Part shown: piece by piece, positions 19,612 through 51,786 of the stretch
How positions within the stretch are numbered: position 1 is the first letter of the stretch
How the letters are laid out: each line of letters starts with the position of its first letter
Source: an uncultured Verrucomicrobiae bacterium
Lineage (GTDB): Bacteria > Chlamydiota > Chlamydiia > Chlamydiales > Rhabdochlamydiaceae
Reading direction: 5' to 3'
Assembly: GCA_963818965.1 (NCBI GenBank)
Contig: CAWFUG010000011.1
Coordinates: forward strand, 32,001-96,000
Length of the DNA stretch: 64,000 bases
Program-made: the position numbers and the translations under genes
Notes under the pieces: generated by a model
Seen by the model: only the letters and a program-made list of their open reading frames with translations
Told to the model about the DNA's origin: nothing
Database searches by the model: none

Positions 19612-21111
19612 TCACGGTAAAACTTTATTGAAAACAGACTCAACTTCCCCTTCGAAAATTTCAATATGTAGAGTCTCTGGCTTCCCTTCTCCATTCAAAC
19701 AAAAGCTCGCATAGGTGCCTGAATCGGTCACAAAAGGCCAAGAGAATAAAAAAGAATCTCGATTGTAGTGTTTGAGCATCCACTTCGTTTTTCGCGGTCC
19801 AATCTCAATCTGTAGCCCCTCTCCTGCGACAGTTACGACGAGTTTGCCATAGATGGAGTTTTGATAGACTCCTGTGTATGCGTTTAAAGACAAAGCGGGA
19901 AGGATCACTTTCGGCGGAACTACTTTTTTAGATCTACCCTCTTTTTGTGCATCGAGTAATTTTTGCGTCCAATCGACAGAGGGTTTTTCAAAATAGAGAT
20001 CGAAGAATTTCCAAGTGAGGGCTTCTGCGACCACCGTATCCCGCGTATTGCACAAGACGACAATCCCTAAGCGCTCTTCTGGAATCACCGCCATGTTGTT
20101 GTTGACGTTCAATGTCGCCCCATTGTGCCAGATGATCGGATAAGGAGAATAGTCGCGTGAGATCCATCCTAAGCAGTAATAGTTCGGAATCCCATTGAGG
20201 TTTGCAGCGAAGATATGAGGGCGGTGTGTACGAGAGAGATTCTCTTTCGAGATCACTTGTTTGCCCTGATAGCGGCCTAAATCTGCCTGAAGTGTGATCC
20301 ACTTGGCCATATCTAAAATCGTAGAATTAACACCTCCTGATGCCGCATAGATGTAGATCCAATCCCTACTTTCAAAATTCTCAGGCAAAGTGACTACTTG
20401 ACCATCGGAGAGGCGCACATGCCACCCTGCACGCTGAGAATTCTTCAAATAGCCTTGTAAATCGCAGCTAGAGGCATTCATCCCCAGCGGATTAAAGAGC
20501 TCTTCGTGGATCAGCGTCTCCCACGACTTTCCTGTGATCTGATGGAGCACCTTAGCACCGACGGCAAAAAAGACATTTTGGTAGGCGAACTGTGAGCGAA
20601 AACTCGACACAGGAGGATAGAAGCGCAAGTGGTCGATGATAGAATCGATCGGAATCCCCAAAAGAGGCTGAAAATCCCCTTCACGCGGCAAGAGACCACT
20701 TCTCTGCGCATAGAGATCTTCGATCTCAAATGCCCGTGTGACCCATGGATCGTACATCATAAAAGAGGGCAAGTGATCCACCACGGGATCTTCCCACTTC
20801 AGCCACTTCCGATCGACGCCCACAGCTGTCAGCGCTGTCGTAAACGATTTACTCATCGATCCGATCTGAAAGAGCGTGTCTGTCGTCACTGGATCTGGAG
20901 CATTGAGATCCCGCTTTCCAAACCCCTTCACATAAACGACTTTGCCATCCTTCACAATGGCCACCGCCATCCCCACCGCCTGACACTTTTGCCGCGAGCT
21001 TTCTGCGTACTGCTCGAATTCCTCGAGCAAACCGCTCCACTCTCGCGCATAGACAAACGAAGAAAACAGAGAAAAGACACAACAAATGATTTTCGCCCTA
21101 AACATCGCCAC
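19612..21111 (-). CDS. Secreted serine hydrolase (beta-lactamase/AmpC-like family, DUF3471-like C-terminus)
   Basis: Signal peptide; FQIGSMSKSFT (SxxK), FAYQN (YxN), HNG; C-terminal YTGVYQNSIYG. Confidence 0.9.
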   Translation of the reverse strand: MAMFRAKIICCVFSLFSSFVYAREWSGLLEEFEQYAESSRQKCQAVGMAVAIVKDGKVVYVKGFGKRDLNAPDPVTTDTLFQIGSMSKSFTTALTAVGVDRKWLKWEDPVVDHLPSFMMYDPWVTRAFEIEDLYAQRSGLLPREGDFQPLLGIPIDSIIDHLRFYPPVSSFRSQFAYQNVFFAVGAKVLHQITGKSWETLIHEELFNPLGMNASSCDLQGYLKNSQRAGWHVRLSDGQVVTLPENFESRDWIYIYAASGGVNSTILDMAKWITLQADLGRYQGKQVISKENLSRTHRPHIFAANLNGIPNYYCLGWISRDYSPYPIIWHNGATLNVNNNMAVIPEERLGIVVLCNTRDTVVAEALTWKFFDLYFEKPSVDWTQKLLDAQKEGRSKKVVPPKVILPALSLNAYTGVYQNSIYGKLVVTVAGEGLQIEIGPRKTKWMLKHYNRDSFLFSWPFVTDSGTYASFCLNGEGKPETLHIEIFEGEVESVFNKVLP

Positions 21112-21248
21112 TCCTAATTCGTATCGATATTTTTTGTTTAAAATAAAAAAAATAATAAATCAATAAAAACCAACGCGATCGACTTGTAAATAATTTAAAT
21201 TTAACTAATATAAAAATTAGACGTGTGAATTAAAAAAAGAGCAGTGTT

Positions 21249-24200
21249 ATGCATCCTCCGATGAGAAGTTCCCAAGAGATCCAAGCGCAATTGCACTCGA
21301 TCGAAGCACACTGCGAACAGGTTCAGCAAAAGTATGAAAAATCGGTGCGCGACCCCTCCGAGGAGGGAAGGACTCAGGCTCTTTTACGCAATAAGCTCAG
21401 TTCTGATCTGGATGGATTACGAGAAATGCGCGATCTATTTCTAAAGGGAAGGGTCAAATGCTCCAAAGAAGACGCAGAGGAGACCATCGCCCTATTCAAT
21501 CGCGTCGCTACCTTTGTTAATAAGGCGCTGCCTCAAACCGGCGTGGAAGCGCTGCCTGAAGCGGAAGTCTTGGATCTGCAGTTCTCCCCCTCCTTCCAGC
21601 AGCTTTCTGAAGTAGAGAAAGAATTCATTTCTGGGTTGACTCCCAAAAATTTGGGCCATCTCATTGGCGATTCCTTCATCCTAGGGATGACCGATCGTTG
21701 GGGGGGGCGCCTAGAGGGAAATACCATGACAGGGGCTCTAAAATTCCTCCTCAATGCGATCGAGTATCTACCCACGAAATACCCTGAAAAATTCGCGGGT
21801 AAGGAAGCGGAGCTCGCCCAAGCAAAGCAGCTTTTTTCCCAACTGCTTGAATCGTCAGATCGTTTGGAGAGGATCGAACAAGAAACAGACCCTGATAAAC
21901 AGGAGCGGCAATTTTCAGAATTCGTCTCCCAAACACGTGATCAATTGAGCCATTTAAAAGAGGGGGAGACACTGCTACTGCCGTGGGGATGGTCCGATCC
22001 CTCTAAGATCGGCCATGCCATGCTCCTCTCTTGTACGAGAAGGAATGGGGAGCTGTGGATCGAGGCGACGAATACGGGCTCTGGAACGGAATTTCACGAG
22101 GTTCCTCAAGAAGCAGGATTCCGCATTAATACGGTTTGTCACTACCGCATTCCCGCTGAAAAAGAGGAAGATTTCTACGATGGGACTTTATCTGCGTTAT
22201 TTGAACCGAGAATTCTCGGAGGATTGACTGAGCACGACAGTGTCATGGATATGAATGAGCGCTATAGCGCAGAAGAGCTCTACCTCATGCTCGAGCCGTA
22301 TCGTTCACAGCCTTGGGGCAAATACCCCCAGACAGAATCACTCAGAGGAGAGCAACAAAGTGGGACCTGTTCGTTACGCTGTTATTTCGATTGTTTTGGC
22401 AGAATGACCTCTAGCGATTTTCGTAAAGAATTTAAGTTTTTATGGGAGCAAGAGGTCGTCTCTCAGTTGCTACAATATGGAGATCACTTTGTAGCGAGCG
22501 ATCCCGTCTATGTCCTCTACTTGAATCGGATGAATCCCAATCTCTTCCGACACCTCGATAAATTGCGCAAACAGGGACTTCCCGAAACGGAAAGCCTCCC
22601 TCTTTTGGAAAAATTTGAAAGACAACAAAAAGAGATCGAGGCCCTCACTTTCCCCTCCGAAGAACAGGGGGTAACGCTCTCCACTAGATTCGAGCCTCGA
22701 TGGCCAGGGACCTACATGAGAGAACTTTGGGAAAGCGGCAGGAAGCGTCTCGTGGAAGGAGAAAGACCTTCGGAGTCTCAAAGTCAAGAAATGCCAGAAG
22801 GCGTGCCTCCACTGCTGCAAGCGGAGCAACTCGCCACTTTACCTCCCGAACAACTCTTAGAGATATTAGACGCCTCTGCTTTATTTTTTAGTGAAGAAGA
22901 TCCCCTGCTCGATGAAATAAAGTCTAGTGGAACCCAATGGAAATTCTTAGAATGCACCATTCCAAGGGATTTTTTCCTCGGAGAGCAATGCAGACAGATC
23001 GCTCGACTCTTCACAGATCCCGCCCTCGAAAATCAAAGACGCGTCTTTTTGGAACAGCTCAAAGACTCCCCTGAATTAGTGGATGCCTTTTTAGAGCGAT
23101 TCTCAAAACTCTCCGGCATGATGACACAACCGATCCTACAAATGGATCTCCGTTATCCCCTAGCTCTCGAAGGGTTGCGCCTTGCCATTTACGATCTAGC
23201 AGTCCTAAGAGATGACCAACAGGGCCTTCAAGGCACCCAGAGAATCGATCACTATGCTCTTCACTTCGAAATGGATTTGAAAAAGGTCTCTCTCTCTGCC
23301 TATACTTTCAATACCCCCCAGGCAGAACGGGAGTATCGACACTTACAAGCCGCTTACGCGCAACGCTTCCCCGATCCTAAGCAGCCGCGGCTATGCCATT
23401 TTACAGAATGGGAAACGTCTACAAACAAGGGGCGGGGTGGTAGCTCTTTGTCCATTCCTTACAGCAATCGAGTTCCAGATTTTCAATACGCAGCCCGTTG
23501 GATTACGAGCCTAAAAGAGGAAGATCAGGACAAAGCCCATCAAGACTATCTAAAAGCGATCAAAAAAGGCTACGGTTCGAGCGCTAAAGAGGAGGAATGG
23601 CGGGTCTGTTGGATGGTAGCACATGGCAAACTCCCTTTAAGCTATCGCGCTCTTCTAACCGCTTCTCTAGGAGCGACTCGGGTTGCTCCTACTTCTGATA
23701 AAGAGTTATCTTCATTTCCGAATGCATTATCGGTAACAGTGGATCTCTCCACAGTTTTTCTGGAGATCGTTTCAACGGATAAAGAAAACCCAAACTATCT
23801 TTCACTCATGCAAAGCGCTGAGCTCACTCCCACTGAAAATGCGCTGATCCATTTCCCTGGCATGGGTAGCGATAAAAACTCCATTCCCTTACATCCTCAA
23901 AAACAAAACGAAGGGACTTTAAAACACGATCCGAAGTTAAGAGAAATCATAGCGATCTTATCTGTAGAGCACCCGCTCCAGCTGACGATGGCTCTCGACT
24001 TCTACCGTCAGTCACCCGAGCTGCTCTTGCAGACAGAACACCGCATTCTCTTCGAATCCTTGTTCTTCGCTCCGACAAAGCTCTCAGAGGCACTAAAAAA
24101 AAATCCCGCCCAAGCTCAAGAAATCACCCGCTTTTTTGAAGAGCTCTCCACCCTCTTGACGCTGAAAAAAATCGCCCTCACCGATCCCCAAGAAATCCTC

Positions 24201-27200
24201 TCTCTCCACGCCTTTATCCTCGAACAAAAAGTACACGCTTACCAAATTCTCGAAGCTTCTAATCCCACAGAAAAAAAACTCCCCAGAGTAAGAGCAGAAA
24301 TCGAAACTCTCTTAAACCACGAGCTCAGCAGCGAACCTGAGATCGGTGTGCGCCTAATGTTCGCCTACATCGGTACTTTTACTCCTGCGCTCCCTTCCGA
24401 CCACTGGAGTCCTGAAGAGATCCCCCTCATTCTCAATCGCTTTCACGAAGCGCTACGCCTTCTTTCGATGTCAGAAGCGCCAAAGAACCTAGGCACCACT
24501 TCCTATCTGCGCGCAGCGGGCCTGATCCTCGAACAGCAGGAGACAATTGAGAGATTCATCGCTTCGAGTCAGAGCAGGGCTTGGGTAGAATCGCTGGTCC
24601 CAGGCCAAAGCGTCACTGAGTGGAGCATCACATCTTTTCCTATCCTAAGTGTCCAAACGCCTCAAACGTCACAGGAGCCACAATCCATCGATCTTTTGAC
24701 GGGTAAAAACCTCACCTCTAAAACCGATAACACAGGACTCATTCCCGCTGATGTCGCTCGTGACAAAAGCTATAGGGCTATTTTTCAAAATAAGAGGGTT
24801 CCCGCAACCCATTTAGGAGATCACTATCTCGTCAAACACTCTACGGGAACTTACAAAGTTTGGCCCCACATGGGGATCGAAAAGGAGATCGAAGGAAAAC
24901 GACACTTACTTCTGCCTCCCAAAAAATTGGGAATCGAATTTTTCCCCCATGTGGATGAATGGCAACTTTGGTTAGATATCGAAACAGAGCCTCCCAAGGT
25001 CCTCATCCTCGATCAAAAGACACAAAAAACCCTGGGATCGATCGATGAAAAGGGGTTTGTTAATCTCGATGGTCCTCCTACTACTACCAACCACTACAGC
25101 AACACCGCTCCTTGGGAACACCCCCTCATAGAAAAAGCCAGTCATTTTTTATGGACGAGAAAGATTAACAGTGAACTAGAGGTAACAGATAAAATTCAAT
25201 TCGGTCTAATCGATGCAGAAGGCTCTGAGCTAGAGTTTACCAAAATCGATAATAAATGGTGTCTAGCAAAAGATCCCAGCTATTTCATCGCTGAAGATCA
25301 AACGCTCATCGGCCTACCCCTCCACCAAAACTACCTCATTTTACAAAATTCCCAAGGCCGTAAAGTGGCCATCCTCCCAGAACTACCTGCAAAACGGCTT
25401 CTTCAATCGAAAAAAGAGGCAGAAGAACAGTACGGATCACAAGCTCTCGCGGCGCCCCACTTCCTGATGCTCGATCTGACCCAAGAGAATCGCATCGCGG
25501 ATCAAAGCACGACCTATCAGAGCTGTTTTGCTGCCTACCAGCTGATGATGGCAGCCAAAAAACCTCAGGATTACGCCGCAGTACTCGAGCGGCTCAAAGG
25601 AGCTCATGAATTTCGCCCCTATACAGAAAAAGAACTACAGGTGTTGGGATGGATCATCTTTTCTAATGAGGAAAAAGTCAATGACGACCCAGAAGCTGCA
25701 GCTTTAAGACTCTACGCAGCTTTTTTAATTCACGATAATCTGCTCCATTATCCTCCTCCGCCCAGAAAAGAGCCTTCGCCCGAAGAAGAAGAAGAAACGA
25801 GTGAACGGGGGTCTCTATCGATCTTAGCCATAGATGCTGATGAAAAAACATGGGCTCAGTATCTAAGAGATCCCACCTCTCTCGATTTGCACGGAAAAAA
25901 GCTGGGGAGCATTTATTTAAGTTATTTGAGAAAGAGAAATAACATCCCCACAGATCTAAAGATCGAAAGGAACATCGCTGCCCACGATCTCGAACAATGG
26001 GGCTTTTCCCCATCCCTTAGAACCTTAAAGCTAGGGAGCAAGCTCCCCCCTTCAGACAAATTCCCATTGGACGAGCGTTCCCACGTGGAGCAATACTCCA
26101 CTTTTCCCTTTTATTACTCGCCCTCCCAGAACCCTCCCCCTTTTGTCACGCGACTAGACGAACGCTTTCGATCGCAAAAAAACTCTTACTTCGCCCACTT
26201 CTACCAACTCGCCCAGTCCCCCCAGATAGAGGACCGAAAAAAAGTCGTCCAATTTTTACAAAAAGCGCGATTTGAAAAAAAATCTGAGAACCGATTTTTG
26301 TGTGCCATCCTCGTCGCGGCCCTAGAAGCACAGGACGCAACCTCTCCACAACAAGAAGAAGCCAAGAAACTCTTAGAAGCATTCGAGCAATACTCTTTGA
26401 AGGGATCCACTTCGGAAGAAGGCCCCCGTGGAGCATCACAGAATTACCACTTCGCTGGACAGCATCAATTTTTGCACGATCCATCCTACACTCTAAATGC
26501 AGCCTACCGAATCTTTTACAACAAATATACAGCCCAAACAGAAGCGTTTGAAAAACACCCTTCCCAACGCATCCTGCTCCCGCCCCCTCAATCACTCCCG
26601 ACTCCCCTACCCACAGCCCCCCGTCAGAGAGATTTTTACCACCCCGCCAATCGCACTCTATTTGCCCCTTTTCAAGCATTGGGAGAAAAGTATTTCACGG
26701 AAAAACCGGTAAGCGATGCGACACCGCCTCAGTCGTTTCCCGAGCTGACCCCTGAGGTTCAAGCACTCAATGAAGAGTACGCGATCGGGTACCAAAAAAA
26801 CCTCCGCGAAAAAACAGCGGCATTAAAAGATACCCCTCAAGCAGTGCGTGCGGGGCTCTTAAAAGAAAAAGAGGCCATTGAACGGGGGCACAACGCCGAT
26901 GAAAAAAAACTCGAGCGCCTGGGTCAAGAGATCCTCTCTTTGGGCAATAAAGAGCTTAAAACATCTGTCCGTGGGCGCGCCAAAACAGGGGGTGCTAAGA
27001 AAAATACCCTCTCTTTAGACGATTTCATTTTGCTCGCCTCCAAAGGCGACTCTAAAGCCATAAAGAAGGCGACAGGCCTAAAAAGTCCCGCGGAACAGCA
27101 GCTGCTGGTGACGACAATTGGAAAGTACTTAGAAGTGGAGATGCGTCTAAGACATAGCAAAGAAATCCTCAAAGGGCTCGATGCGTTGGCTGAAGCAGAT

Positions 27201-30200
27201 GAAGGGGATTGTCTTTCAGAATTGAACCACCTGCAAGGGCTTTTACAAACGGGTTCTGCCTTTGTCAACAGAGACTCCCTCGCCCAATTGACCTTCCAAC
27301 ACTTTATCGATTTGAACTTTCGCGAAGACCAGGTCGAAGATCTCGATAAAATCATTGCAGAAGGGAGCGATATCTTCGCGCAGCGGGCGACAGGAGCTGG
27401 TAAGACGCTCGTGTTATCCAATATGCTCGCCTATTACAAAGCCGATGGCTACCACCTCTCCATCCACGTCTCGCCGACCTATCAATTCGCCTCTCAGATC
27501 TACGAGATGAGCGGTCGAACGCAAAAAGCCTTAGGCCAAAAAGCGCATGCCCTGGTCTTCCGTGATTCTCCCGAATACTTTAATGTCGCGAGCTTACAGC
27601 GTCTGAATAACGAGCTCAATCAGGTGATCGCAGAGGGAGAGTACTTCAATACGACCCAGACGACGCTGCGGACATTGCGCACCGCATACGTCTCCTCTGC
27701 ACTCGAGTATTATACGAACACTTCATTGACAGAGGAGGCTCGACAAGAGCTCTTCTCTAAAATGAGACTGATCTGCGATATCAATGCCAAGATCCGCTCG
27801 CGCGGCATTTTGACCTTTGACGAAGTGCACGATGCGCAAAATCCCAAAGTGATCCTCAATAAGGGAGTCGGCGAAATTTCCTACATCGACAGCATCCACA
27901 CAGAACTCATCGCCACTCTCCTTACACTCGGTTTTGAAAGAAGAGAGGGGCAAGGAAAAGCTCTGCTTTCCTTCACAGAAACCCATCAAATCCAAACCAC
28001 TAAAGAAGAGAAAGAACAACTGACACAAACGATGGTGGACCATATTACCACCGATCCCGATTGGCTAAAAAAGTTCGACTGTGAAGATTTATCTCGTGAA
28101 GAGAAAGGAGCTCTTAGGGAATTTCTCTCAAAAGAAGAGGCTCCTATGCCTGCATTTCTGCAGAAGAGGATCGCCTCCTTCGAGCGCAAGGGGGGAATCA
28201 TGACCTCGTTAGATCATCTCCTTCTCTGTAGGCAGTTGATCGCAGGTCATTGGATTTTTGAGTCTCTTTCCCAATCGGTCTATGAAAACTACCAGTTGAT
28301 TTACGAGGAAGGGAAATTGCCCATCGCAGTTCCTTGCGTTTCCCACTTAAAAGCTTCGAAAAATTCAGAATTTAGTGATCCGTACCGAATGTGTGTCAAT
28401 ACCCTCATTGCCTACCGGGCAGAAGGGATCACCCTAGAGCAAACGAAAGAATTAGTCGCAGACTTACGCATCCAAGCGCTCAAAGAATTTGAACAAAAAT
28501 CAGAAGAAAATCCCGATTTTAGACTCGAAGATACAGAGAGCTTTTCCCAGTTTGCGCTCTTGATGAAAAGAGTCCGTGGACCGGGTAATCTCGCAGAGAT
28601 CAACCTCAACGACCGCGCCACTCTGGAAAAAATTCAGCGCGCCCTTAAGGGAAATTCGCACGCGGCGGTTTCAGTGCTTTCAGGATACATTACAGCGCGC
28701 GTTCTAAACAAAAAGAAGCTGCTCGGCGAACAGACCTCTTGTAACGGGATGAATACCTCTACCATGGGAAAAAACAGCAACGGGTTCTCGGCCACCATCG
28801 ACAACAAACATATCGCTCCCGTCATGGATTACACAGGTCGGATGACCGCGATCGCCCTGGAACCGGGCGTTTACGGACAGCGCATCGACACCTTAATCGA
28901 AAAACACCCCGATGTCTACATCATGGGAAATAGCCCCGACGACCTATTTGAAGACGTCTATCACAAATTGCCAGAAGAGAAGCGGGAACGGGTGAGGGCT
29001 GTTATCGACGTGGGCTGTCACTTCCGCGGCGTGCCCAACAGGGAAGTCGCAGAGTCGATGTGCCGAGCGTTCAAAGGTTCTCCTGTGGAAGGTGTCATCT
29101 TTTACGACACAGAGACAGACCGTGCCTACTACATGCAAAAATCCAACCCCAGCCACATCCAACTCATTAACTCCCTGGAAACAAAATCAGTGGATGGAGT
29201 CGAAATCTTCGCAGATATCGGCGTCCCTGTCGATAACGTCGCCGTCTACTTTAGCCACGATAAAATCACCGGAACCAATATCCCCCTGATGAAAAATGCG
29301 GTCGCCCTTTCCACATTTACAAATGAGACCAAATTCTTCAGTCAAATGCAAGGCGATGGCCGCATGCGCAAACTAACCGAAGAGCAAGAGATCATTACCG
29401 CTGTCTCTCAAGATTCTCTCATGGAAATCAGCCAGTTACTTGACAATCCCGACATTGAAGATCTTCCCGTCGCAAAAGTAGACAACCGCACATTCATTCA
29501 AGCTCTCATTCTCTTCGCGTATTGCCTCCAAATCAAAGGGCGTAAAGAGGAGACCTTCCTCCTCGGCATGCAAAATCTACAGAACTGCGTCCAGCAATAC
29601 CTGCTCGATAAAATCTACGAAAATCCCTATCTAGAAGCCACTGTATTCACCCACTGTGCCGATCTCTTCAAAGAAAATATCGCCATCGACTTCGTCCGCG
29701 ATTACGGCTTCCCCAAAACCACCGCCAAAATGAGAGATCATCTCGATCTCACTGTGAAAAAGCTCCTCTCAAACTTAGCTTCTCTTCCCCTCCCCCCAGA
29801 AGAGGTCGCGCAACTCCGCGCGACATTGGAGACCATGAAAGAGGCTCTCCTCCCCGATCTCGAAAAAGAGATCGAAGTCAATGAAGGGGAACTAGATCCT
29901 AAAAAACCAGCAGAGATGCCTCATTCCCGAGACGGGACCATGGAGCAGATCCAAGAGAAAAAATCGATTCAACACAAAAATAACTTGGCCATCCAAGAAT
30001 GGGTCCAAGAGAGCTCTTCCGAGTATAAAGAGCCCACAGAAAGGCTCTCCGTAACCTGGCAACAACTCTACGCTCCCGACTTTGGCCAACCTACAACGCT
30101 CATTGAAGAAGAAAAGCCTATTACTCCCTTACTTATAGACGAGGCAGAAGTTGAATACGCTAAGGAGGCATTCTTTTCCTTTCTCGGAAGGCTTCGAGGG

Positions 30201-31211
30201 AAAAGAGAAAACATTCTGAAGGAGCTTGAAAAAGAGATCGGCTTAAGTGAGGAGACTCCGGCCACAGCCTCGATGCTACAAAAAGCGATGGAGATCGTTT
30301 TAAAATACTGCACCCCTGAACAAGCAGTTTCGCTAGATGCATGGATGGCACCCTACTCTCCACGTCCCTCCGAAGAAGAGGATAAAGAAGGGGTAACTAC
30401 GCTCTTTTCATTTCTCAATAAGTATCCAGAGATAGGAAAAGAGGCTAAACCCCAACTTAATGACGAATTTGAATTGGGGCCAGACAATTTCTTCTCCCCT
30501 GGGATGCTGCCAAGAGCCCTAGAGATCATTCTACCCTATTGTAACTCTGAAGAAGCAGCTGAGCTCCAAGCGCTCATGGCGCCCCACCTTTCTACAAAAG
30601 AGAGTCAAGAAGTACCCCCTTTCTCTATCCAGCCTCTCAATGCCGCATTGGGACAACGGTTCCCTAAGCTATGGAGCTCTGATCTCTTTTCCGATGACCT
30701 ACTCGCCTCCCAGAATTTCCTCTCAACAGCAGATCAAGAGATGAACTTATTCGATGATTTGGAAAAACCGCTATTCCAGGTCCTTCTCATCCAAGATAAG
30801 CCAGGCGATCAAAATAAACTCCTCTTACTCTCCGCAGAAGACGCAAAACAGGTCGCGACCATTTTCCAGGAGGAAAAGGAGACACTACCAACTGGCAGGC
30901 AAATGTGGCTCCTGCGACCCCAAGGGAATTTAGCGTGGCCTGGCCCCTCCCCCTATAATAAACAAGACCTCTTGAACCAGCCCGAGGTCGCTCGTTTGCT
31001 CCTCCAGGCGAATTTTTTCTCAGGGAACCTCGCCTTCCTCGAGACCCCCTTTGGTCAAAAGGAATTAGCCGCCTGGCTTAAAGAAGTCAAAGACCCCCAG
31101 CTCGCCCAATCGATCTTCGAAAATGCAATCCTAAAAGCACACCCTCAAGAAGGGTATCCCTTTTCTAAAACCCAGCAAATGCTCAGAACGTTCTCTGAAG
31201 AGGTTAAATGA
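21249..31211 (+). CDS. Giant 3320-aa protein: N-terminal putative cysteine-peptidase motif plus DUF3638/DUF3645 helicase-like module
   Basis: GW..GHAM..NTGSG..QQSGTCS; TGAGKT, DEVH, AVPC..SEFSDP, VIDVG, YFSHDKITGTNI, QGDGRMRKL. Confidence 0.8.
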   Translation: MHPPMRSSQEIQAQLHSIEAHCEQVQQKYEKSVRDPSEEGRTQALLRNKLSSDLDGLREMRDLFLKGRVKCSKEDAEETIALFNRVATFVNKALPQTGVEALPEAEVLDLQFSPSFQQLSEVEKEFISGLTPKNLGHLIGDSFILGMTDRWGGRLEGNTMTGALKFLLNAIEYLPTKYPEKFAGKEAELAQAKQLFSQLLESSDRLERIEQETDPDKQERQFSEFVSQTRDQLSHLKEGETLLLPWGWSDPSKIGHAMLLSCTRRNGELWIEATNTGSGTEFHEVPQEAGFRINTVCHYRIPAEKEEDFYDGTLSALFEPRILGGLTEHDSVMDMNERYSAEELYLMLEPYRSQPWGKYPQTESLRGEQQSGTCSLRCYFDCFGRMTSSDFRKEFKFLWEQEVVSQLLQYGDHFVASDPVYVLYLNRMNPNLFRHLDKLRKQGLPETESLPLLEKFERQQKEIEALTFPSEEQGVTLSTRFEPRWPGTYMRELWESGRKRLVEGERPSESQSQEMPEGVPPLLQAEQLATLPPEQLLEILDASALFFSEEDPLLDEIKSSGTQWKFLECTIPRDFFLGEQCRQIARLFTDPALENQRRVFLEQLKDSPELVDAFLERFSKLSGMMTQPILQMDLRYPLALEGLRLAIYDLAVLRDDQQGLQGTQRIDHYALHFEMDLKKVSLSAYTFNTPQAEREYRHLQAAYAQRFPDPKQPRLCHFTEWETSTNKGRGGSSLSIPYSNRVPDFQYAARWITSLKEEDQDKAHQDYLKAIKKGYGSSAKEEEWRVCWMVAHGKLPLSYRALLTASLGATRVAPTSDKELSSFPNALSVTVDLSTVFLEIVSTDKENPNYLSLMQSAELTPTENALIHFPGMGSDKNSIPLHPQKQNEGTLKHDPKLREIIAILSVEHPLQLTMALDFYRQSPELLLQTEHRILFESLFFAPTKLSEALKKNPAQAQEITRFFEELSTLLTLKKIALTDPQEILSLHAFILEQKVHAYQILEASNPTEKKLPRVRAEIETLLNHELSSEPEIGVRLMFAYIGTFTPALPSDHWSPEEIPLILNRFHEALRLLSMSEAPKNLGTTSYLRAAGLILEQQETIERFIASSQSRAWVESLVPGQSVTEWSITSFPILSVQTPQTSQEPQSIDLLTGKNLTSKTDNTGLIPADVARDKSYRAIFQNKRVPATHLGDHYLVKHSTGTYKVWPHMGIEKEIEGKRHLLLPPKKLGIEFFPHVDEWQLWLDIETEPPKVLILDQKTQKTLGSIDEKGFVNLDGPPTTTNHYSNTAPWEHPLIEKASHFLWTRKINSELEVTDKIQFGLIDAEGSELEFTKIDNKWCLAKDPSYFIAEDQTLIGLPLHQNYLILQNSQGRKVAILPELPAKRLLQSKKEAEEQYGSQALAAPHFLMLDLTQENRIADQSTTYQSCFAAYQLMMAAKKPQDYAAVLERLKGAHEFRPYTEKELQVLGWIIFSNEEKVNDDPEAAALRLYAAFLIHDNLLHYPPPPRKEPSPEEEEETSERGSLSILAIDADEKTWAQYLRDPTSLDLHGKKLGSIYLSYLRKRNNIPTDLKIERNIAAHDLEQWGFSPSLRTLKLGSKLPPSDKFPLDERSHVEQYSTFPFYYSPSQNPPPFVTRLDERFRSQKNSYFAHFYQLAQSPQIEDRKKVVQFLQKARFEKKSENRFLCAILVAALEAQDATSPQQEEAKKLLEAFEQYSLKGSTSEEGPRGASQNYHFAGQHQFLHDPSYTLNAAYRIFYNKYTAQTEAFEKHPSQRILLPPPQSLPTPLPTAPRQRDFYHPANRTLFAPFQALGEKYFTEKPVSDATPPQSFPELTPEVQALNEEYAIGYQKNLREKTAALKDTPQAVRAGLLKEKEAIERGHNADEKKLERLGQEILSLGNKELKTSVRGRAKTGGAKKNTLSLDDFILLASKGDSKAIKKATGLKSPAEQQLLVTTIGKYLEVEMRLRHSKEILKGLDALAEADEGDCLSELNHLQGLLQTGSAFVNRDSLAQLTFQHFIDLNFREDQVEDLDKIIAEGSDIFAQRATGAGKTLVLSNMLAYYKADGYHLSIHVSPTYQFASQIYEMSGRTQKALGQKAHALVFRDSPEYFNVASLQRLNNELNQVIAEGEYFNTTQTTLRTLRTAYVSSALEYYTNTSLTEEARQELFSKMRLICDINAKIRSRGILTFDEVHDAQNPKVILNKGVGEISYIDSIHTELIATLLTLGFERREGQGKALLSFTETHQIQTTKEEKEQLTQTMVDHITTDPDWLKKFDCEDLSREEKGALREFLSKEEAPMPAFLQKRIASFERKGGIMTSLDHLLLCRQLIAGHWIFESLSQSVYENYQLIYEEGKLPIAVPCVSHLKASKNSEFSDPYRMCVNTLIAYRAEGITLEQTKELVADLRIQALKEFEQKSEENPDFRLEDTESFSQFALLMKRVRGPGNLAEINLNDRATLEKIQRALKGNSHAAVSVLSGYITARVLNKKKLLGEQTSCNGMNTSTMGKNSNGFSATIDNKHIAPVMDYTGRMTAIALEPGVYGQRIDTLIEKHPDVYIMGNSPDDLFEDVYHKLPEEKRERVRAVIDVGCHFRGVPNREVAESMCRAFKGSPVEGVIFYDTETDRAYYMQKSNPSHIQLINSLETKSVDGVEIFADIGVPVDNVAVYFSHDKITGTNIPLMKNAVALSTFTNETKFFSQMQGDGRMRKLTEEQEIITAVSQDSLMEISQLLDNPDIEDLPVAKVDNRTFIQALILFAYCLQIKGRKEETFLLGMQNLQNCVQQYLLDKIYENPYLEATVFTHCADLFKENIAIDFVRDYGFPKTTAKMRDHLDLTVKKLLSNLASLPLPPEEVAQLRATLETMKEALLPDLEKEIEVNEGELDPKKPAEMPHSRDGTMEQIQEKKSIQHKNNLAIQEWVQESSSEYKEPTERLSVTWQQLYAPDFGQPTTLIEEEKPITPLLIDEAEVEYAKEAFFSFLGRLRGKRENILKELEKEIGLSEETPATASMLQKAMEIVLKYCTPEQAVSLDAWMAPYSPRPSEEEDKEGVTTLFSFLNKYPEIGKEAKPQLNDEFELGPDNFFSPGMLPRALEIILPYCNSEEAAELQALMAPHLSTKESQEVPPFSIQPLNAALGQRFPKLWSSDLFSDDLLASQNFLSTADQEMNLFDDLEKPLFQVLLIQDKPGDQNKLLLLSAEDAKQVATIFQEEKETLPTGRQMWLLRPQGNLAWPGPSPYNKQDLLNQPEVARLLLQANFFSGNLAFLETPFGQKELAAWLKEVKDPQLAQSIFENAILKAHPQEGYPFSKTQQMLRTFSEEVK

Positions 31212-32593
31212 TCCGCTTTCTCCTCCTTCTCCTCCTCTGCACGAGCGCTGCGCCACTCTTAACCCAAGGCACGCGAAAACCCCCAGAGAAAGTCGCATTC
31301 ACTCAAGAAGAGATCGCCACCTCACACAAGATCGCGCACGTCATCGTCATCATGCAAGAGAACTGGTCCTTCGACTCCCTCTATGGAAAGTTCCCCGGAG
31401 CTGAAGGGATTGCTCAAGCAAGCCCTGAGAGCATGCGACAGCTCGATCGCAACGGGACGCCCTTTTCCTTTCTCCCTCCCTGCTCTTACGGCAAAGGGAA
31501 AAAAACCTGTCCTGACATCCCCGCTCGTCTGCCCAATGCCCCCTTCGACTTAGAGCCCTACATATCCCTGACAAAAAACACCGTCGACCCCGTGCACCGG
31601 TTTTACAACGAGCTGTGTCAAATCAACGGCGGTAAGATGAATGGATTTGCCGCCTGGGGAAATACGGGAGGCTTTGTGATGAGCTATTACGACATTTCAA
31701 AGACGCGAATGGGACAACTCGCCAAGCAATACACGCTCTGCGATCACTTTTTCCACTCCTGTTATGGCTCGTCGATGTGCGGAGCCCTGATGCTCTTTAG
31801 CGCACAAATCCCTAAATGGCCTAATCCCCCTCAAAAGCTCATCATCGACACCACAGAAGAAGGGATCATGAGCTTCAAAGGCAAAGTGACAAAAGAGGGA
31901 TACGCCGTCGAAGATTTCCAACCCTACTACCCACCCTATCGTAAAAACACTCCCCCGAATGAACGGCTCCCCCCGCAAACCTTCCTTACGATCGGCGATT
32001 TACTCGATGCAAAAAAAATTTCCTGGGGCTGGTATGCAGAAGGATGGGACGATGCGCTCGCAGGAAAGGACTCTCATGATTTCCCCTGTCACCACCAAGC
32101 ACCGAGCTATTTTCCCCAATTCGCCCCAAATACGGCAGGCAGAAAAGCCCACCTGTTCGACCTAAGAGAATTCCACCTGCAGCTCCAGCGCAATGAACTC
32201 CCCGCCGTCTGTTTCATCCGCTCTCTCGACTCTCACAGCGAACACCCTGGCGAAGGCTCTCTTTTAGAAGGACTCAACTGGTGCGCCGATCTCATCGAAA
32301 CGATCCAAAAAAGCCCTGCCTGGGATACCTGTGTGATCGTCGTCACCTATGACGAAAATGGAGGCCGTTGGGACCACGTCGCCCCTCCCATTGTCGATGC
32401 GTTCGGCCCCGGCACCCGCATCCCCACCCTCATCATCTCCCCTTTTGCCAAAAAAGGATTTGTCGATAAGACCACCTACGAGACCGTCTCCATCCTCAAA
32501 TTCATCGAAGAGCGGTGGGGCCTCCCCTCCCTCTCCCCCCGTGACGCCAACGCCAACAACCTTCTCAACGCATTCGACTTCTCTAAAGAATAG
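31208..32593 (+). CDS. Secreted phosphoesterase (AcpA acid phosphatase / phospholipase C family)
   Basis: Signal peptide; HVIVIMQENWSFDSLYG, DPVHRFY, YTLCDHFF, SEHPG, TYDENGGRWDHVAPP, GPGTRIP; ATGA overlap with the giant gene. Confidence 0.9.
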   Translation: MIRFLLLLLLCTSAAPLLTQGTRKPPEKVAFTQEEIATSHKIAHVIVIMQENWSFDSLYGKFPGAEGIAQASPESMRQLDRNGTPFSFLPPCSYGKGKKTCPDIPARLPNAPFDLEPYISLTKNTVDPVHRFYNELCQINGGKMNGFAAWGNTGGFVMSYYDISKTRMGQLAKQYTLCDHFFHSCYGSSMCGALMLFSAQIPKWPNPPQKLIIDTTEEGIMSFKGKVTKEGYAVEDFQPYYPPYRKNTPPNERLPPQTFLTIGDLLDAKKISWGWYAEGWDDALAGKDSHDFPCHHQAPSYFPQFAPNTAGRKAHLFDLREFHLQLQRNELPAVCFIRSLDSHSEHPGEGSLLEGLNWCADLIETIQKSPAWDTCVIVVTYDENGGRWDHVAPPIVDAFGPGTRIPTLIISPFAKKGFVDKTTYETVSILKFIEERWGLPSLSPRDANANNLLNAFDFSKE

Positions 32594-48746: not shown

Positions 48747-50309
48747 CTAAATCGTATTTAAGGGCTGAGGTACGCCTTCTTCAGGCGCTGAGAGGGGCTG
48801 TTTTGTAGTCGTAACCGCTTTGAACTGTTTCCCGAGCGATACGACCGAGTAGATCCAGGCGAGCAACACGACGAACAAGAGCCCTGCGATATAGGGCGTA
48901 GAGAGCGTGACGCTACCGAGCAAGATGATAAAGCCTTGGTAGGTCAGAGAAGAGCCTGATTTCCCGATTCCTGATCCCAAGCCGTCGATGGCAGCCTTCC
49001 CTTTTAATTTCGACTCAGGGGAAAGGGGCAAGAAGGCGAGTTCCTTTGTCGCATCGAAGACCGAGTATTTACCTGCTTTACTCACACAATTTTGCATAGA
49101 ACCGCAGTAGACAGTCATTGCCAAAGGGGTCACGCCAAAAAGGGCAGAGGAGACGGCAAACAGGGCATCTTGGCAGAACATAAAGGTGAAAAAGCCAATC
49201 GCCATGATGGTCATGAGCAATGGGGTGATAATCGCCGTAAACGTCCATCCGAGACGCGTGACCATGATGGAGAAGAAAACCCCTCCGATGGTCGCAAAGA
49301 TCCCAATCCCAATGGTGATCTTACTCATGTGCTCGATCATCTCATTGGGGTCGGAAAAAAACCGCTTTAACTGTTCTTTCCACAAGACGTCTGTGAAGTT
49401 AATACTGATGTTATAGCCTAAGACGATGATCGCTAGAGGGACGAGATAGGGAGAGCGGACGATGTACTTGATGCTCTCTCTCAAAGAAAGTTTACTCTTC
49501 TTGGATTCTGGAGAATCCCCTGCTACGGGCTCTTTCTTCTCTTCTTTGGGGAGCACGTAGCGATTGATCCACCAATAAAAACCCATCGCCAAAACTCCAA
49601 CAATAGAGACGACTAACACCAACTGGCAGAGAGTCTGTCCCCAAGGATCGGTCACCGAAGAAAGGAAGGAGAGAGCCATCGGCTGGCTGAAAAATAGAGC
49701 TAAGCTTCCCCCTACAATCGGAGCGAAATTAGAGCCGATGTTCAATAAGCCATAGGTTCGCTTGGCCTCATTGACCTGGGTGACATCGTTGGCAAAACCC
49801 CAATAGAGCACAGTGAGGACAAGCACAGCCCAAAGCTCTGAGATCACGTAAAATGTCGTAAACGTCCAGTTGCGTAAAAGAGCGATGAGCCCTTGAAATC
49901 CCTTAGGCAAAACAGAGGTTAAAAATTCTCCTAACCGGTCGAAATGGAGAGCCTCGCTGTTGGGATAGAGGACGAAGGCGAATAAGAGAAAATAGCTGAT
50001 AAAACTAGAAAGGAGGATATAAAAGGCGCTTTCCTTGCTGAAATAACGTCTGAGACGGGTGTAGACCCATGTCGCGATAAAGACACCGGGTAACATCCCC
50101 CAGACCTTGATAAAGGGGATCACTTCAGCGCCTGAGTGTTTCGCTGTCAAAATAATCGTATCTTTGAGATTGCGTAAGATCCCATAACAGATGCAAAGCA
50201 GAAAAAGCAGAAGGAGCATAGAAAGAACTTTTTTAACTTCCGTCCGATGGACGGGCCAAAAAACCGACCGAAGAAGACTAAATTGATCTTTTTTCTGCAC
50301 AGAAGCCAT
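48747..50309 (-). CDS. Nucleotide transport protein, TLC/Npt (ATP/ADP translocase) family
   Basis: FWPVH..E.KK, LRNLKD, AEVIPFIKVW, SELW, YWGFAND, KYSVFDATKELAFLPL, KGKAAID, GKSG; probable ATG at 50309. Confidence 0.95.
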   Translation of the reverse strand: MASVQKKDQFSLLRSVFWPVHRTEVKKVLSMLLLLFLLCICYGILRNLKDTIILTAKHSGAEVIPFIKVWGMLPGVFIATWVYTRLRRYFSKESAFYILLSSFISYFLLFAFVLYPNSEALHFDRLGEFLTSVLPKGFQGLIALLRNWTFTTFYVISELWAVLVLTVLYWGFANDVTQVNEAKRTYGLLNIGSNFAPIVGGSLALFFSQPMALSFLSSVTDPWGQTLCQLVLVVSIVGVLAMGFYWWINRYVLPKEEKKEPVAGDSPESKKSKLSLRESIKYIVRSPYLVPLAIIVLGYNISINFTDVLWKEQLKRFFSDPNEMIEHMSKITIGIGIFATIGGVFFSIMVTRLGWTFTAIITPLLMTIMAIGFFTFMFCQDALFAVSSALFGVTPLAMTVYCGSMQNCVSKAGKYSVFDATKELAFLPLSPESKLKGKAAIDGLGSGIGKSGSSLTYQGFIILLGSVTLSTPYIAGLLFVVLLAWIYSVVSLGKQFKAVTTTKQPLSAPEEGVPQPLNTI

Positions 50310-50457
50310 ATGTTCATCCCAAACCTCCCTAGAGTAGCTTTCCATTCGATTTTTCACAAGGGAAATATTTTTTTTGACAAATTTAGGGAAATTCGATTAT
50401 TAAGTCCCCAGTGAACACCCAACCTGGCTCAAGGTTAGGGTATATCTTGGAGTCATC

Positions 50458-51786
50458 ATGTCGATAGCAGAACAATCGGCCCCTACAGAAGCTGTATCTT
50501 GGATCCGCACCCTCGCGGCTCCGCTGCTTTTAATTGCGGTTTGTCCCGCCCTCGTCATGCTCGTTTGGTTCACAAATGCCCATTTGGGCGGATCGACCGA
50601 TACCTTATTCTCCCTCTTTTCTCAAAAAGGAATTTTTGCGACGATCTATTCGATTTGGGCCCCTGTCTTTTTCGGCACTGCAAAAGCGTGGAAAATTTTG
50701 GCGGCATTTGCCGGCTTCGAGCTTTTATTGATGAAGGTTCTCCCTGGCAGAAAATTCCACGGACCCGTTACTCCCAAAGGGAATATCCCCGCCTATAAGG
50801 CCAATGGAGTCTCCGCTTTTTTGAGCACGCTCTTTCTCTTTTACTTTGCGACCCACTCGCTTAAGCTCTTTTCCGCCACTCTGATCTACGACAACTTCGG
50901 CGGTCTTCTCGGTGCTCTCAATATCTTCAGCCTCATCTTCTGTCTCTTCCTCTATTTCAAAGGCAGATACAAACCCTCCAGCACAGATGCAGTCAGCTCG
51001 CGCGGGCCGCTGGCCGATTATTTTTGGGGGATGGAGCTCTACCCTCGCCTCTTTGGCTGGGATGTCAAAATGTTTACAAACTGCCGTTTCGGCATGATGG
51101 GATGGGGTCTCATCCTCCTTTCCTTTGCTGCAAAACAACAAGAGCTCTATGGATTATCCAATTCGATGATCATCGCTGTGACCCTACAGCTCGCCTACAT
51201 TCTAAAATTTTTTTGGTGGGAAACCGGATATCTGCGTTCGATGGACATCATGTACGACCGCGCCGGCTTCTGCATTTGCTGGGGCTGTCTCGTCTGGCTG
51301 CCTGCGATCTACACCTCCCCTACCCTCTACCTTGTGAACCATCCCAATCACCTGCAACCACTCCTCGCTGCCGGCATCTTCCTCATCGGGATCAGTTGTA
51401 TTCTCGTCAATTACCTAGCCGATCGACAAAGGCAATACGTCCGTCTGAAAAATGGAGACTGCACGATCTGGAGAAAAAAACCCGACCTTATCTTCGCCAA
51501 TTACAAAACCGACTGGGGCGAAGAAAAACAGAACCTGCTGCTCGTCTCTGGCTGGTGGGGAATCTCTCGGCACTTCCATTACATCCCTGAACTCCTCGGC
51601 GCCGTCTGTTGGAGCATTCCCGCTCTTTTCACTCACTACATCCCTTATTTCCATTTGACCTTTCTCGTCCTTCTCCTCATGGACCGCACCTACCGTCGGG
51701 AAAAGCAATGCGCGACGAAATACGGCAAAGACTGGGAAAAATACTGCGAACGGGTCCCCTTTCGCTTCATCCCTTTCCTGTATTAA
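50458..51786 (+). CDS. Sterol reductase (ERG4/ERG24 family, 7-dehydrocholesterol-reductase-like)
   Basis: YKANG, FWGMELYPR, DVKMFTNCRFGMMGW, MDIMYDRAGF, LLVSGWWGISRHFHY, KYGKDWEKYCERVPFRFIP. Confidence 0.93.
   Translation: MSIAEQSAPTEAVSWIRTLAAPLLLIAVCPALVMLVWFTNAHLGGSTDTLFSLFSQKGIFATIYSIWAPVFFGTAKAWKILAAFAGFELLLMKVLPGRKFHGPVTPKGNIPAYKANGVSAFLSTLFLFYFATHSLKLFSATLIYDNFGGLLGALNIFSLIFCLFLYFKGRYKPSSTDAVSSRGPLADYFWGMELYPRLFGWDVKMFTNCRFGMMGWGLILLSFAAKQQELYGLSNSMIIAVTLQLAYILKFFWWETGYLRSMDIMYDRAGFCICWGCLVWLPAIYTSPTLYLVNHPNHLQPLLAAGIFLIGISCILVNYLADRQRQYVRLKNGDCTIWRKKPDLIFANYKTDWGEEKQNLLLVSGWWGISRHFHYIPELLGAVCWSIPALFTHYIPYFHLTFLVLLLMDRTYRREKQCATKYGKDWEKYCERVPFRFIPFLY

Follow-up and report, generated by a model that had tools for sequence, protein, structure and literature searches.

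Several kinds of described protein lie close to the giant protein encoded at 21249..31211 (+) of a 64,000-nucleotide stretch (the window) of contig CAWFUG010000011.1, from an uncultured environmental chlamydia of the Rhabdochlamydiaceae. SecA, a protein translocase of superfamily 2 (SF2), holds its substrate as a beta-strand between its connecting strands and a loop of the PPXD, mostly through main-chain bonds (PMC9926265). The Legionella proteins AnkH/LegA3 and LegA15/AnkD are each of about 450 amino acids (aa). In AnkH a His opens one strand, an Asn closes the strand that follows and a Cys lies where a helix begins; its triad mutants have a partial growth defect, and the discussion of that report calls the triad essential (PMC6712400). 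For LegA15 a triad H268-N290-C361 has been proposed (Chung 2021, cited in PMC9757750). Finally, giants of the DUF6606-DUF3638-DUF3645 type (PF20255, PF12340 and PF12359) form a large gene family in microsporidia (PMC5423893), include a polymorphic effector candidate of Plasmodiophora (10.64898/2026.10.14.759018), occur in Tetrahymena with their mechanism undefined (PMC12615304), and appear as a table row in Aspergillus (PMC6237848).

The open reading frame (ORF) studied here is complete, with 3,320 aa in a single frame without a stop. An original prediction, made from the DNA letters, had described it as a peptidase fused to a helicase-like protein of the DUF3638/DUF3645 kind, and the 9.96-kb frame and every motif that it quoted lie where it placed them (Table 1). 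We found that the N-terminal head is predicted to share the fold of AnkH and LegA15, and that the C-terminal motor is predicted to be closest to SecA. The ORF, its conservation, both folds as predictions and the distribution of the family form the established part of this account. Our best reading, held tentatively, is that the protein is a host-directed, ATP-driven machine that grips polypeptides and carries a cysteine enzyme; its secretion, substrate and chemistry are what we infer.

The giant gene and its family

The gene is present once in the source genome (tblastn), and its G+C content (0.483) is genome-like. The protein has no hydrophobic stretch of signal or transmembrane type, the highest 19-residue hydropathy being 1.32. 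A Pfam scan of the whole protein returned nothing but DEAD, at an expectation value (E) of 1e-4 and below the cut-off; an NCBIfam scan returned no match; and PDB sequence searches with the whole protein, the head profiles and the motor profile gave none under E 0.01. Neither DUF3638 nor DUF3645 was matched at E<=0.01 by the whole protein or at E<=0.1 by the motor alone. A first pass with the motor region gave matches in 133 of 401 genomes of the phylum; 60 loci were taken from the upper part of the match table, chosen for long open frames, and family alignments of 43 rows (head) and 61 rows (motor) were built. Because 53 of the 61 aligned motors match DUF3638 and 16 match DUF3645 at E<=0.1, we place the giant protein in this family, of which it is, by sequence comparison, a divergent relative. 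The predicted match to DUF3638/DUF3645 therefore holds through the relatives, together with the SF2 fold described below, and fails as a direct Pfam match of the protein itself. A reading of the gene as an artefact or as fused ORFs was rejected because full-length, collinear relatives exist. Four DNA sequencing runs, represented by short contigs only, gave 28 differences in the ORF (16 synonymous, 12 nonsynonymous and 0 stops), too thin a sample for use. As far as residues can tell, this is a real, intact and catalytically complete bacterial variant and, within a family that is catalogued but has not been studied, the copy is an ordinary intact one.

A motor profile matched 194 of the 401 phylum genomes at E<=1e-10, a count for which the profile was built from the same genome sample and about two candidates were scored per genome. 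Relatives were found in 0 of 30 genomes of one chlamydial family, made up mostly of one genus with 1.0-1.3-Mb genomes, which we take to be Chlamydia's own; the sole genome of the same genus as our source (89% complete) had no family match. In the class to which Legionella nautarum belongs, 13 of 300 genomes had motor matches (one genome unscored). Outside the bacteria, fungal DUF6606-DUF3638-DUF3645 proteins match the motor down to E 8.5e-82, a protein of the haptophyte Prymnesium has both motor and head, and DUF3638 models of Klosneuvirinae match the motor model (template modelling score 0.56-0.66, E 2e-24 to 2e-19), the viral presence resting on the fold library. A survey of Chlamydiota, Legionella's class and eukaryotes thus finds the family in each, and in giant viruses too. 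The original prediction knew it mostly from fungi and protists; members there are borne out, and the statement falls short in that about half of the sampled phylum genomes carry the family.

The giants of fungi, protists, microsporidia and Klosneuvirinae share with the chlamydial protein their size class (~3,000-4,000 aa), the motor, and a collinear middle stretch and tail. Segments are collinear among the bacterial members, and in two places, a middle stretch and the tail, the agreement reaches the fungi: aa ~1140-1245 are common to fungal DUF3638 proteins (hhalign probability 87.6, E 3.5e-6), and the conserved C-terminal domain pattern can be aligned with fungal members (tails of median 440 aa from 199 proteins). 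The N-terminal parts differ. No homology was detected between fungal DUF6606 and the chlamydial head, PF20255 having no match in 43 heads and hhalign against nine fungal N-termini, with a shallow profile, being not significant; ESM Atlas look-alikes overlap weakly, under 0.9. The Prymnesium head is homologous (probability 96.8) but lacks the triad that is intact in the chlamydial protein. In a phylogenetic tree, the fungi and the haptophyte form one cluster (SH-aLRT 89), which lies outside the main bacterial groups; with long branches and a midpoint root, we claim neither donor nor direction. A search with the head profile gave 4,118 clusters at 50% identity, and among the best 150 of these all 106 new proteins of >2,500 aa carry the motor too. 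Some genomes hold tandem giant paralogues (loci L052 and L071/L056), some of them without a triad, and one 3,461-aa relative (P0195) is rearranged, with its motor from aa 739-1135 onward and no detectable head.

The literature searched on DUF3638, DUF3645 and DUF6606, with few subscription papers among the available texts, gave neither a function nor a bacterial form, in agreement with the original prediction that this architecture has no characterised function. Likewise, none of it tied the family to SecA or AnkH, in a search that left supplements aside (the additional file of PMC3482391 could list such proteins), and the main text of PMC11696984 contains neither "SecA" nor "helicase".

The motor and its predicted SecA-type fold

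In 74 motor alignments, E2192, Q2701, R2705 and R2707 are invariant, D2191 is kept in 73 and K2052 in 72. The motor model (predicted local distance difference test, pLDDT, 90.1) has two RecA folds and ends in a long helix, and an insert of ~290 residues is attached through two strands between Walker B and motif III; with a Q-motif, Walker A, DExx and motifs III, V and VI, the model contains the elements of an SF2 protein. The prediction of an SF2-type ATPase, intact and of the DUF3638/DUF3645 kind, is therefore supported, and we consider it highly probable that the motor hydrolyses ATP.

The fold comparisons pointed to SecA. The top four Foldseek matches are SecA (E 1e-7 to 2e-6), the top three of a wide fold search are SecA or SecA2 (Z 18.3, 17.2 and 16.7), and the top 19 chains of a second comparison are all SecA. 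As modelled, then, the nearest solved fold of the motor is SecA and not a nucleic-acid helicase, and the "helicase-like" of the original prediction is not borne out as worded. SecY-engaged SecA structures (6itc, 5eul and 3dl8) align over 523, 514 and 522 residues, other SecA over ~400, and DEAD-box proteins and RIG-I over ~340. Because the aligned length rises from ~400 to 514-523 with SecY-engaged SecA alone, we suggest that the extra ~120 residues represent a PPXD-like clamp in the closed position; in the predicted model the insertion is both entered and left through strands, in the manner of a PPXD. Since the nearest folds are SecA, including its closed polypeptide clamp, a protein substrate is favoured over a nucleic acid, and we hold this to be moderately probable. 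The net charge of the motor core, -23, also speaks for our reading.

The giant motor has in common with SecA/SecA2 (3jv2, 6itc, 5eul, 2fsf and 4uaq) the pair of RecA folds, an insert where the PPXD lies, the long helix that follows, the nucleotide residues and the QN-motif III block. SecA Q85, K106, D207/E208, D492, Q521, R525 and R528 (PMC9926265) correspond to Q2028, K2052, D2191/E2192, position 2677, Q2701, R2705 and R2707; position 2677 is Asp in 171 of 208 cases and Asn in this protein. The DUF3645-like motif sits inside the insert and, in an alignment by eye, is in register with the PPXD loops of SecA. With a family position-specific scoring matrix (PSSM) of the QN-motif III block, which was chosen after the match had been seen, SecA ranked first of 1,397 ORFs of the source genome (19.1 against 13.5 bits for the next). 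The motor differs from SecA in having no Pfam SecA match, a motif VI (QxxxRxR) one residue shorter, a ~290-aa insert and a place within a 3,320-aa chain. The source genome carries a separate, ordinary SecA, which is all that the Pfam SecA model PF07517 finds there. This SecA (L091:1486-4440) has a long PPXD region, its motif II and QN block lying ~250 aa apart. SecA-like modules within giant proteins have precedents in the conflict effectors of Amoebophilus (PMC3482391) and in giant proteins of Omnitrophota and actinobacteria (10.1101/2023.11.21.568195). The Omnitrophota proteins are described as matching SecA Pfam models and having many transmembrane segments; the chlamydial family has neither, and is set apart on that description.

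The cysteine-protease-like head

The predicted catalytic set of the head is His256 (nt 22014), Asn275 (22071), Gln369 (22353) and Cys374 (22368). In 183 aligned heads, a set partly selected with the head profile itself, these residues are kept in 164, 172, 163 and 162 cases, that is, each in about nine of ten, and the His is invariant in a 23-row head set. In the model (pLDDT 91.7), the His lies at the start of a strand, the Asn ends the next strand and the Cys stands at the start of a helix. The permuted papain-like His-Asn-Gln-Cys head proposed originally is thus supported by conservation and by layout alike.

All seven Foldseek matches of the head under E 0.001 (1e-5 to 4e-4) are LegA15/AnkD or AnkH. 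A wide fold search gave Z 17.2 and 16.4 for LegA15/AnkH and 6.4 for the next protein, and a second comparison placed LegA15 best (Z 18.0). Altogether, the fold is shared with LegA15/AnkD (7kj6, 7xql and 7ew8) and AnkH/LegA3 (6mca) over 255-273 residues at a root-mean-square deviation of 3.7-4.1 (Z 16.4-18.0). The His-Asn/Asp-Gln-Cys order is common to both, the AnkH motifs rGHa, D/NRg and GNCS parallel the chlamydial GHA, NTG and SGTCS, and many relatives have ankyrin repeats before the head. Unlike AnkH and LegA15, the giant protein studied here has no ankyrin repeats; the Legionella proteins lack a motor, are 11-16% identical to the head and have no sequence-level match to it. On five genomes of Legionella's class, the head profile found giant proteins only, and not AnkH.

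The clan CE Ulp1-like deconjugases (NEDP1, XopD, RavZ and poxvirus I7L) have the same residue order and a core that aligns over 149-209 residues, but they score merely Z 4.2-5.0, and no Pfam peptidase match was found in 43 heads. Because true clan-CE deubiquitinases score just Z 4-5 against 16-18, "deubiquitinase" is an unproven label. ESM Atlas neighbours, offered as a lead only, are hypothetical clusters at 0.90-0.93 with low recognition and a YopJ-type cluster at 0.79. We conclude that the head is very likely a cysteine enzyme, for which deubiquitinase is one option. That it is active as an enzyme is, in our view, quite probable; that its substrate is specifically ubiquitin-like is doubtful.

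Head and motor are not kept to the same degree. At 58 loci selected by the motor, the six motor residues are intact in 57, the remaining one having Glu for the Walker B Asp; the triad is intact in 36, and 18 have a head without a triad. These counts are descriptive and not tests, kin not being independent. Because motor residues are kept so much more often than the triad, and the haptophyte head lacks the triad, we conclude that the motor is the constant function of the family, and that the head, an accessory, can be dispensed with or serve on its own. Mapped on a tree of 85 rows, the triad label changes 12 times, compared with 28 for shuffles ("no triad" here including head-less rows and one N-truncated entry). 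Head matches occur in 72 of 150 genomes, with up to 14 in one. Twenty short-frame matches (434-813 aa) were chosen and fetched, and 19 of them are closed frames that encode a head with H-N-C by itself, the giant body being absent altogether. These stand-alone heads (L143-L162, His-Asn-Gln-Cys) represent an unnamed chlamydial effector-candidate family; 19 of the 20 have no Pfam match, and one has MORN repeats.

Probable delivery, proposed mechanism and alternatives

The original prediction inferred that the protein is aimed at the host, and we regard host delivery as probable. Among 25 relatives whose long N-terminal extensions (over ~230 aa) were scanned, eight have ankyrin repeats, one has an otubain-like extension (L060:1322-3961, E 7.5e-5) and one a DnaJ-like extension (L070:15267-16292, E 1e-5), the last two being below the cut-off. 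Type III export genes, named in part from a Pfam FHIPEP match, lie on the same contig as the giant gene. N-termini rich in Ser, Asn, Thr and Pro suit type III signals. The fraction of these residues is 0.304 in the N-termini of 55 relatives against 0.226 in 220 neighbouring ORFs, with starts taken as first ATGs and spurious frames included in the control; the relatives are also poorer in hydrophobics. Together with the ankyrin extensions and the export genes, the occurrence of the family in Chlamydiota, Legionella, fungi, a haptophyte and Klosneuvirinae supports host direction. No recurring partner, chaperone or immunity gene was found across 63 loci, the largest shared cluster being ABC ATPases in six, so that the toxin "system" of the original prediction was not borne out.

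In the reading that we favour, a soluble giant effector of an environmental chlamydia would enter the host cytosol and work on host proteins. Its SecA-type motor would take hold of a polypeptide in extended form, which would lie as a beta-strand between the PPXD-like insert and the motor's two connecting strands; by ratcheting the gripped chain with ATP, the motor would act as an unfoldase or extractor with no SecY channel involved. The handled protein would be cut or modified by the head, which would be an active enzyme with Cys, His and Asn in the AnkH/LegA15 branch of a clan-CE-like fold; the reaction could be the cleavage of a peptide or isopeptide bond or the transfer of an acyl group. 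Whether head and motor are coupled is to us an even question; a complex prediction of the two scored 0.00, which is no evidence either way.

Several observations weigh against this reading. The motor is 8-13% identical to SecA, and SecA's Z lead over helicases is modest (18.3 against 16.3 for FANCM; 19.4 against 17.2 for eIF4A1). An hhalign comparison of the motor with SecA was not significant (probability ~2), and several other SF2 proteins of the source genome beat SecA in it (best probability 57). Seven of eight PSSM blocks do not rank SecA first, the clamp-loop block placing it at 161 and in the wrong position; the intercalating Arg327 of SecA has no Arg counterpart in the by-eye register; and the two-helix finger region (aa 2791 onward) lies outside the motor model. 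The head profile reaches neither AnkH nor LegA15 by sequence. For AnkH, protease activity is reported as not detected in vitro (PMC6712400), and LegA15 is reported to be a Cys361-dependent GTPase (PMC9757750), so "protease or deubiquitinase" is not supported as originally put for a head of the AnkH/LegA15 family. The triad-less loci and the haptophyte keep both head and motor, and cutting is therefore dispensable for the core job of the family. Lastly, the protein's own N-terminus is not rich in Ser, Asn, Thr and Pro (0.20).

An unlikely alternative is that a deubiquitinase is joined to a motor that unwinds or travels along nucleic acid (a helicase or translocase), the whole being aimed at host ribonucleoprotein or chromatin. 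The SF2 motif set is complete and the folds next after SecA are FANCM, RIG-I and DEAD-box proteins (Z 15-17), but helicases miss the insert and align over ~340 residues, against 514-523 for closed-clamp SecA. AnkH acts on the 7SK small nuclear ribonucleoprotein (PMC6712400), and one relative has the otubain-like extension; NEDP1, XopD and RavZ match the head at Z 4.5-5.0, yet this is a third to a quarter of the AnkH/LegA15 score. Eukaryotic members carry the UniRef label "ubiquitinyl hydrolase 1", but the proteins so labelled show no His-Asn-Cys set.

Somewhat less probable still is a SecA-like motor that passes the giant chain to which it belongs, or a cargo, across a membrane by export or threading, with the head as an autoprocessing protease that frees an N-terminal cargo. 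The resemblance of the motor model to SecY-engaged SecA and the variable N-terminal extensions are in keeping with this, and the SecA-like domains found in giants of Omnitrophota have been proposed to export the protein itself (10.1101/2023.11.21.568195). However, there is no transmembrane segment in this protein, nor in 156 of 208 proteins, only ~119 residues precede its head, the genome has an ordinary SecA, fungi and giant viruses keep the same motor, and stand-alone heads retain an intact triad.

We consider it improbable that the head is a LegA15-like GTPase or nucleotide switch that regulates the motor. LegA15, with its reported Cys361-dependent GTP hydrolysis (PMC9757750), is the best fold match (Z 18.0), and its Gln356 stands five residues before Cys361, as Gln369 does before Cys374. 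The basic residues of its GTP pocket are not retained in these heads: at the offsets of Arg291 and Lys367, counted from the triad and not from a superposition, just 9 and 2 of 157 triad-bearing heads have Lys or Arg, and no counterpart of the third pocket residue, Arg408, was located. Moreover, LegA15 was little affected by H268A (PMC9757750), whereas no head of the 23-row set lacks the His. Equally improbable is a role inside the bacterium, or one directed against other microbes or viruses: the protein's own N-terminus is unremarkable, 3,320 aa is long for needle export and the distribution is patchy, down to the same-genus genome without a match, but no conserved neighbour, chaperone or immunity gene recurs across the 63 loci, the family has eukaryote-type appendages, and the only solved relatives of the head are translocated effectors.

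Table 1. Features of the giant gene and of its surroundings in the window (aa, amino acids of the giant protein)
Feature	Position (nt)	Strand	Basis
Complete ORF, 3,320 aa	21249..31211	+	frame, motif positions, hydropathy
Variable N-terminal leader, aa 1-119	21249..21605	+	longer extensions in relatives
Predicted AnkH/LegA15-type cysteine-protease-like head, aa 120-470	21606..22658	+	model, Foldseek, conservation
Head motif starts: GW; GHAM; NTGSG; QQSGTCS	21987; 22011; 22071; 22353	+	
Middle body, aa 471-1989, without Pfam match	22659..27215	+	collinearity among bacterial relatives
Predicted SecA-type SF2 ATPase motor (DUF3638/DUF3645 family), aa 1990-2790	27216..29618	+	model, fold searches, conservation
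Motor motifs: Q2028; Walker A, DEVH, motif V, QxxxRxR; then long helix	27390..27407; 27819..27830; 29247..29282; 29349..29369	+	sequence and model
Motor motif starts: TGAGKT; DEVH; AVPC; SEFSDP; YFSHDKITGTNI; QGDGRMRKL	27390; 27819; 28326; 28365; 29247; 29349	+	
Insert of ~290 aa, Walker B to motif III, putative PPXD counterpart	27855..28742	+	model secondary structure, aligned length
DUF3645-like motif	28278..28382	+	
QN + motif III block, in register with SecA block	28734..28802	+	family PSSM
C-terminal region, aa 2791-3320: helical part, Glu/Gln-rich linker, conserved terminal domain	29619..31208	+	tail alignment
Effector-like leucine-rich-repeat protein, 271 aa	7676..8491	+	
Beta-lactamase-fold serine hydrolase + DUF3471	19612..21111	-	far below all beta-lactamase cut-offs
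AcpA-type acid phosphatase	31208..32593	+	TIGR03397, 372 bits, above cut-off
TLC ATP/ADP translocase	48747..50357		
ERG4/ERG24 sterol reductase family gene	50458..51786	+	
Three consecutive ORFs, 646-770 aa	56063..62943	-	

The window is chlamydial both in its content, which includes a TLC translocase and a CT021 family gene, and in the named relatives of the giant protein, which are from Chlamydiales, Parachlamydia and Neochlamydia. Parachlamydia sp. AcF125, a symbiont of amoebae that is in culture, is among the bearers of the gene. A promoter and terminator scan of 21050-21300 found none. The serine hydrolase gene is divergent from the giant gene, and the phosphatase gene overlaps the giant gene's stop by 4 nt and does not recur at other giant-gene loci. 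The sterol reductase gene is flanked by the translocase and an adenylate kinase. Among the three consecutive ORFs, a possible effector cluster, two have no Pfam or NCBIfam match and the third is weakly F-box-like.

Extended to the whole family, the reading becomes a possible but doubtful one: DUF3638/DUF3645 giants would be an unrecognised, channel-free offshoot of SecA, single-chain, ATP-driven unfoldases or extractors of proteins that intracellular bacteria have in common with eukaryotes and giant viruses. Of the environmental chlamydiae, about half would deliver one with an active AnkH/LegA15-type head, pulling host protein through the SecA clamp and cutting or de-conjugating it, and AnkH, LegA15 and the stand-alone chlamydial heads would be the same enzyme without the motor. 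If this is true, AAA+ protease or segregase machines would have in the giants a counterpart that is monomeric and belongs to SF2. Should the motor move polypeptides, the family would be a second SF2 family of protein translocases beside SecA, which would give thousands of unstudied giants (the 4,118 head-profile clusters) a testable job. AnkH and LegA15, whose triad chemistry is disputed, gain a large set of relatives in which the triad is present or lost. If the host-directed reading holds, few large effector candidates of environmental chlamydiae would be as common as this family, found in 194 of 401 genomes and with up to 14 head matches per genome.

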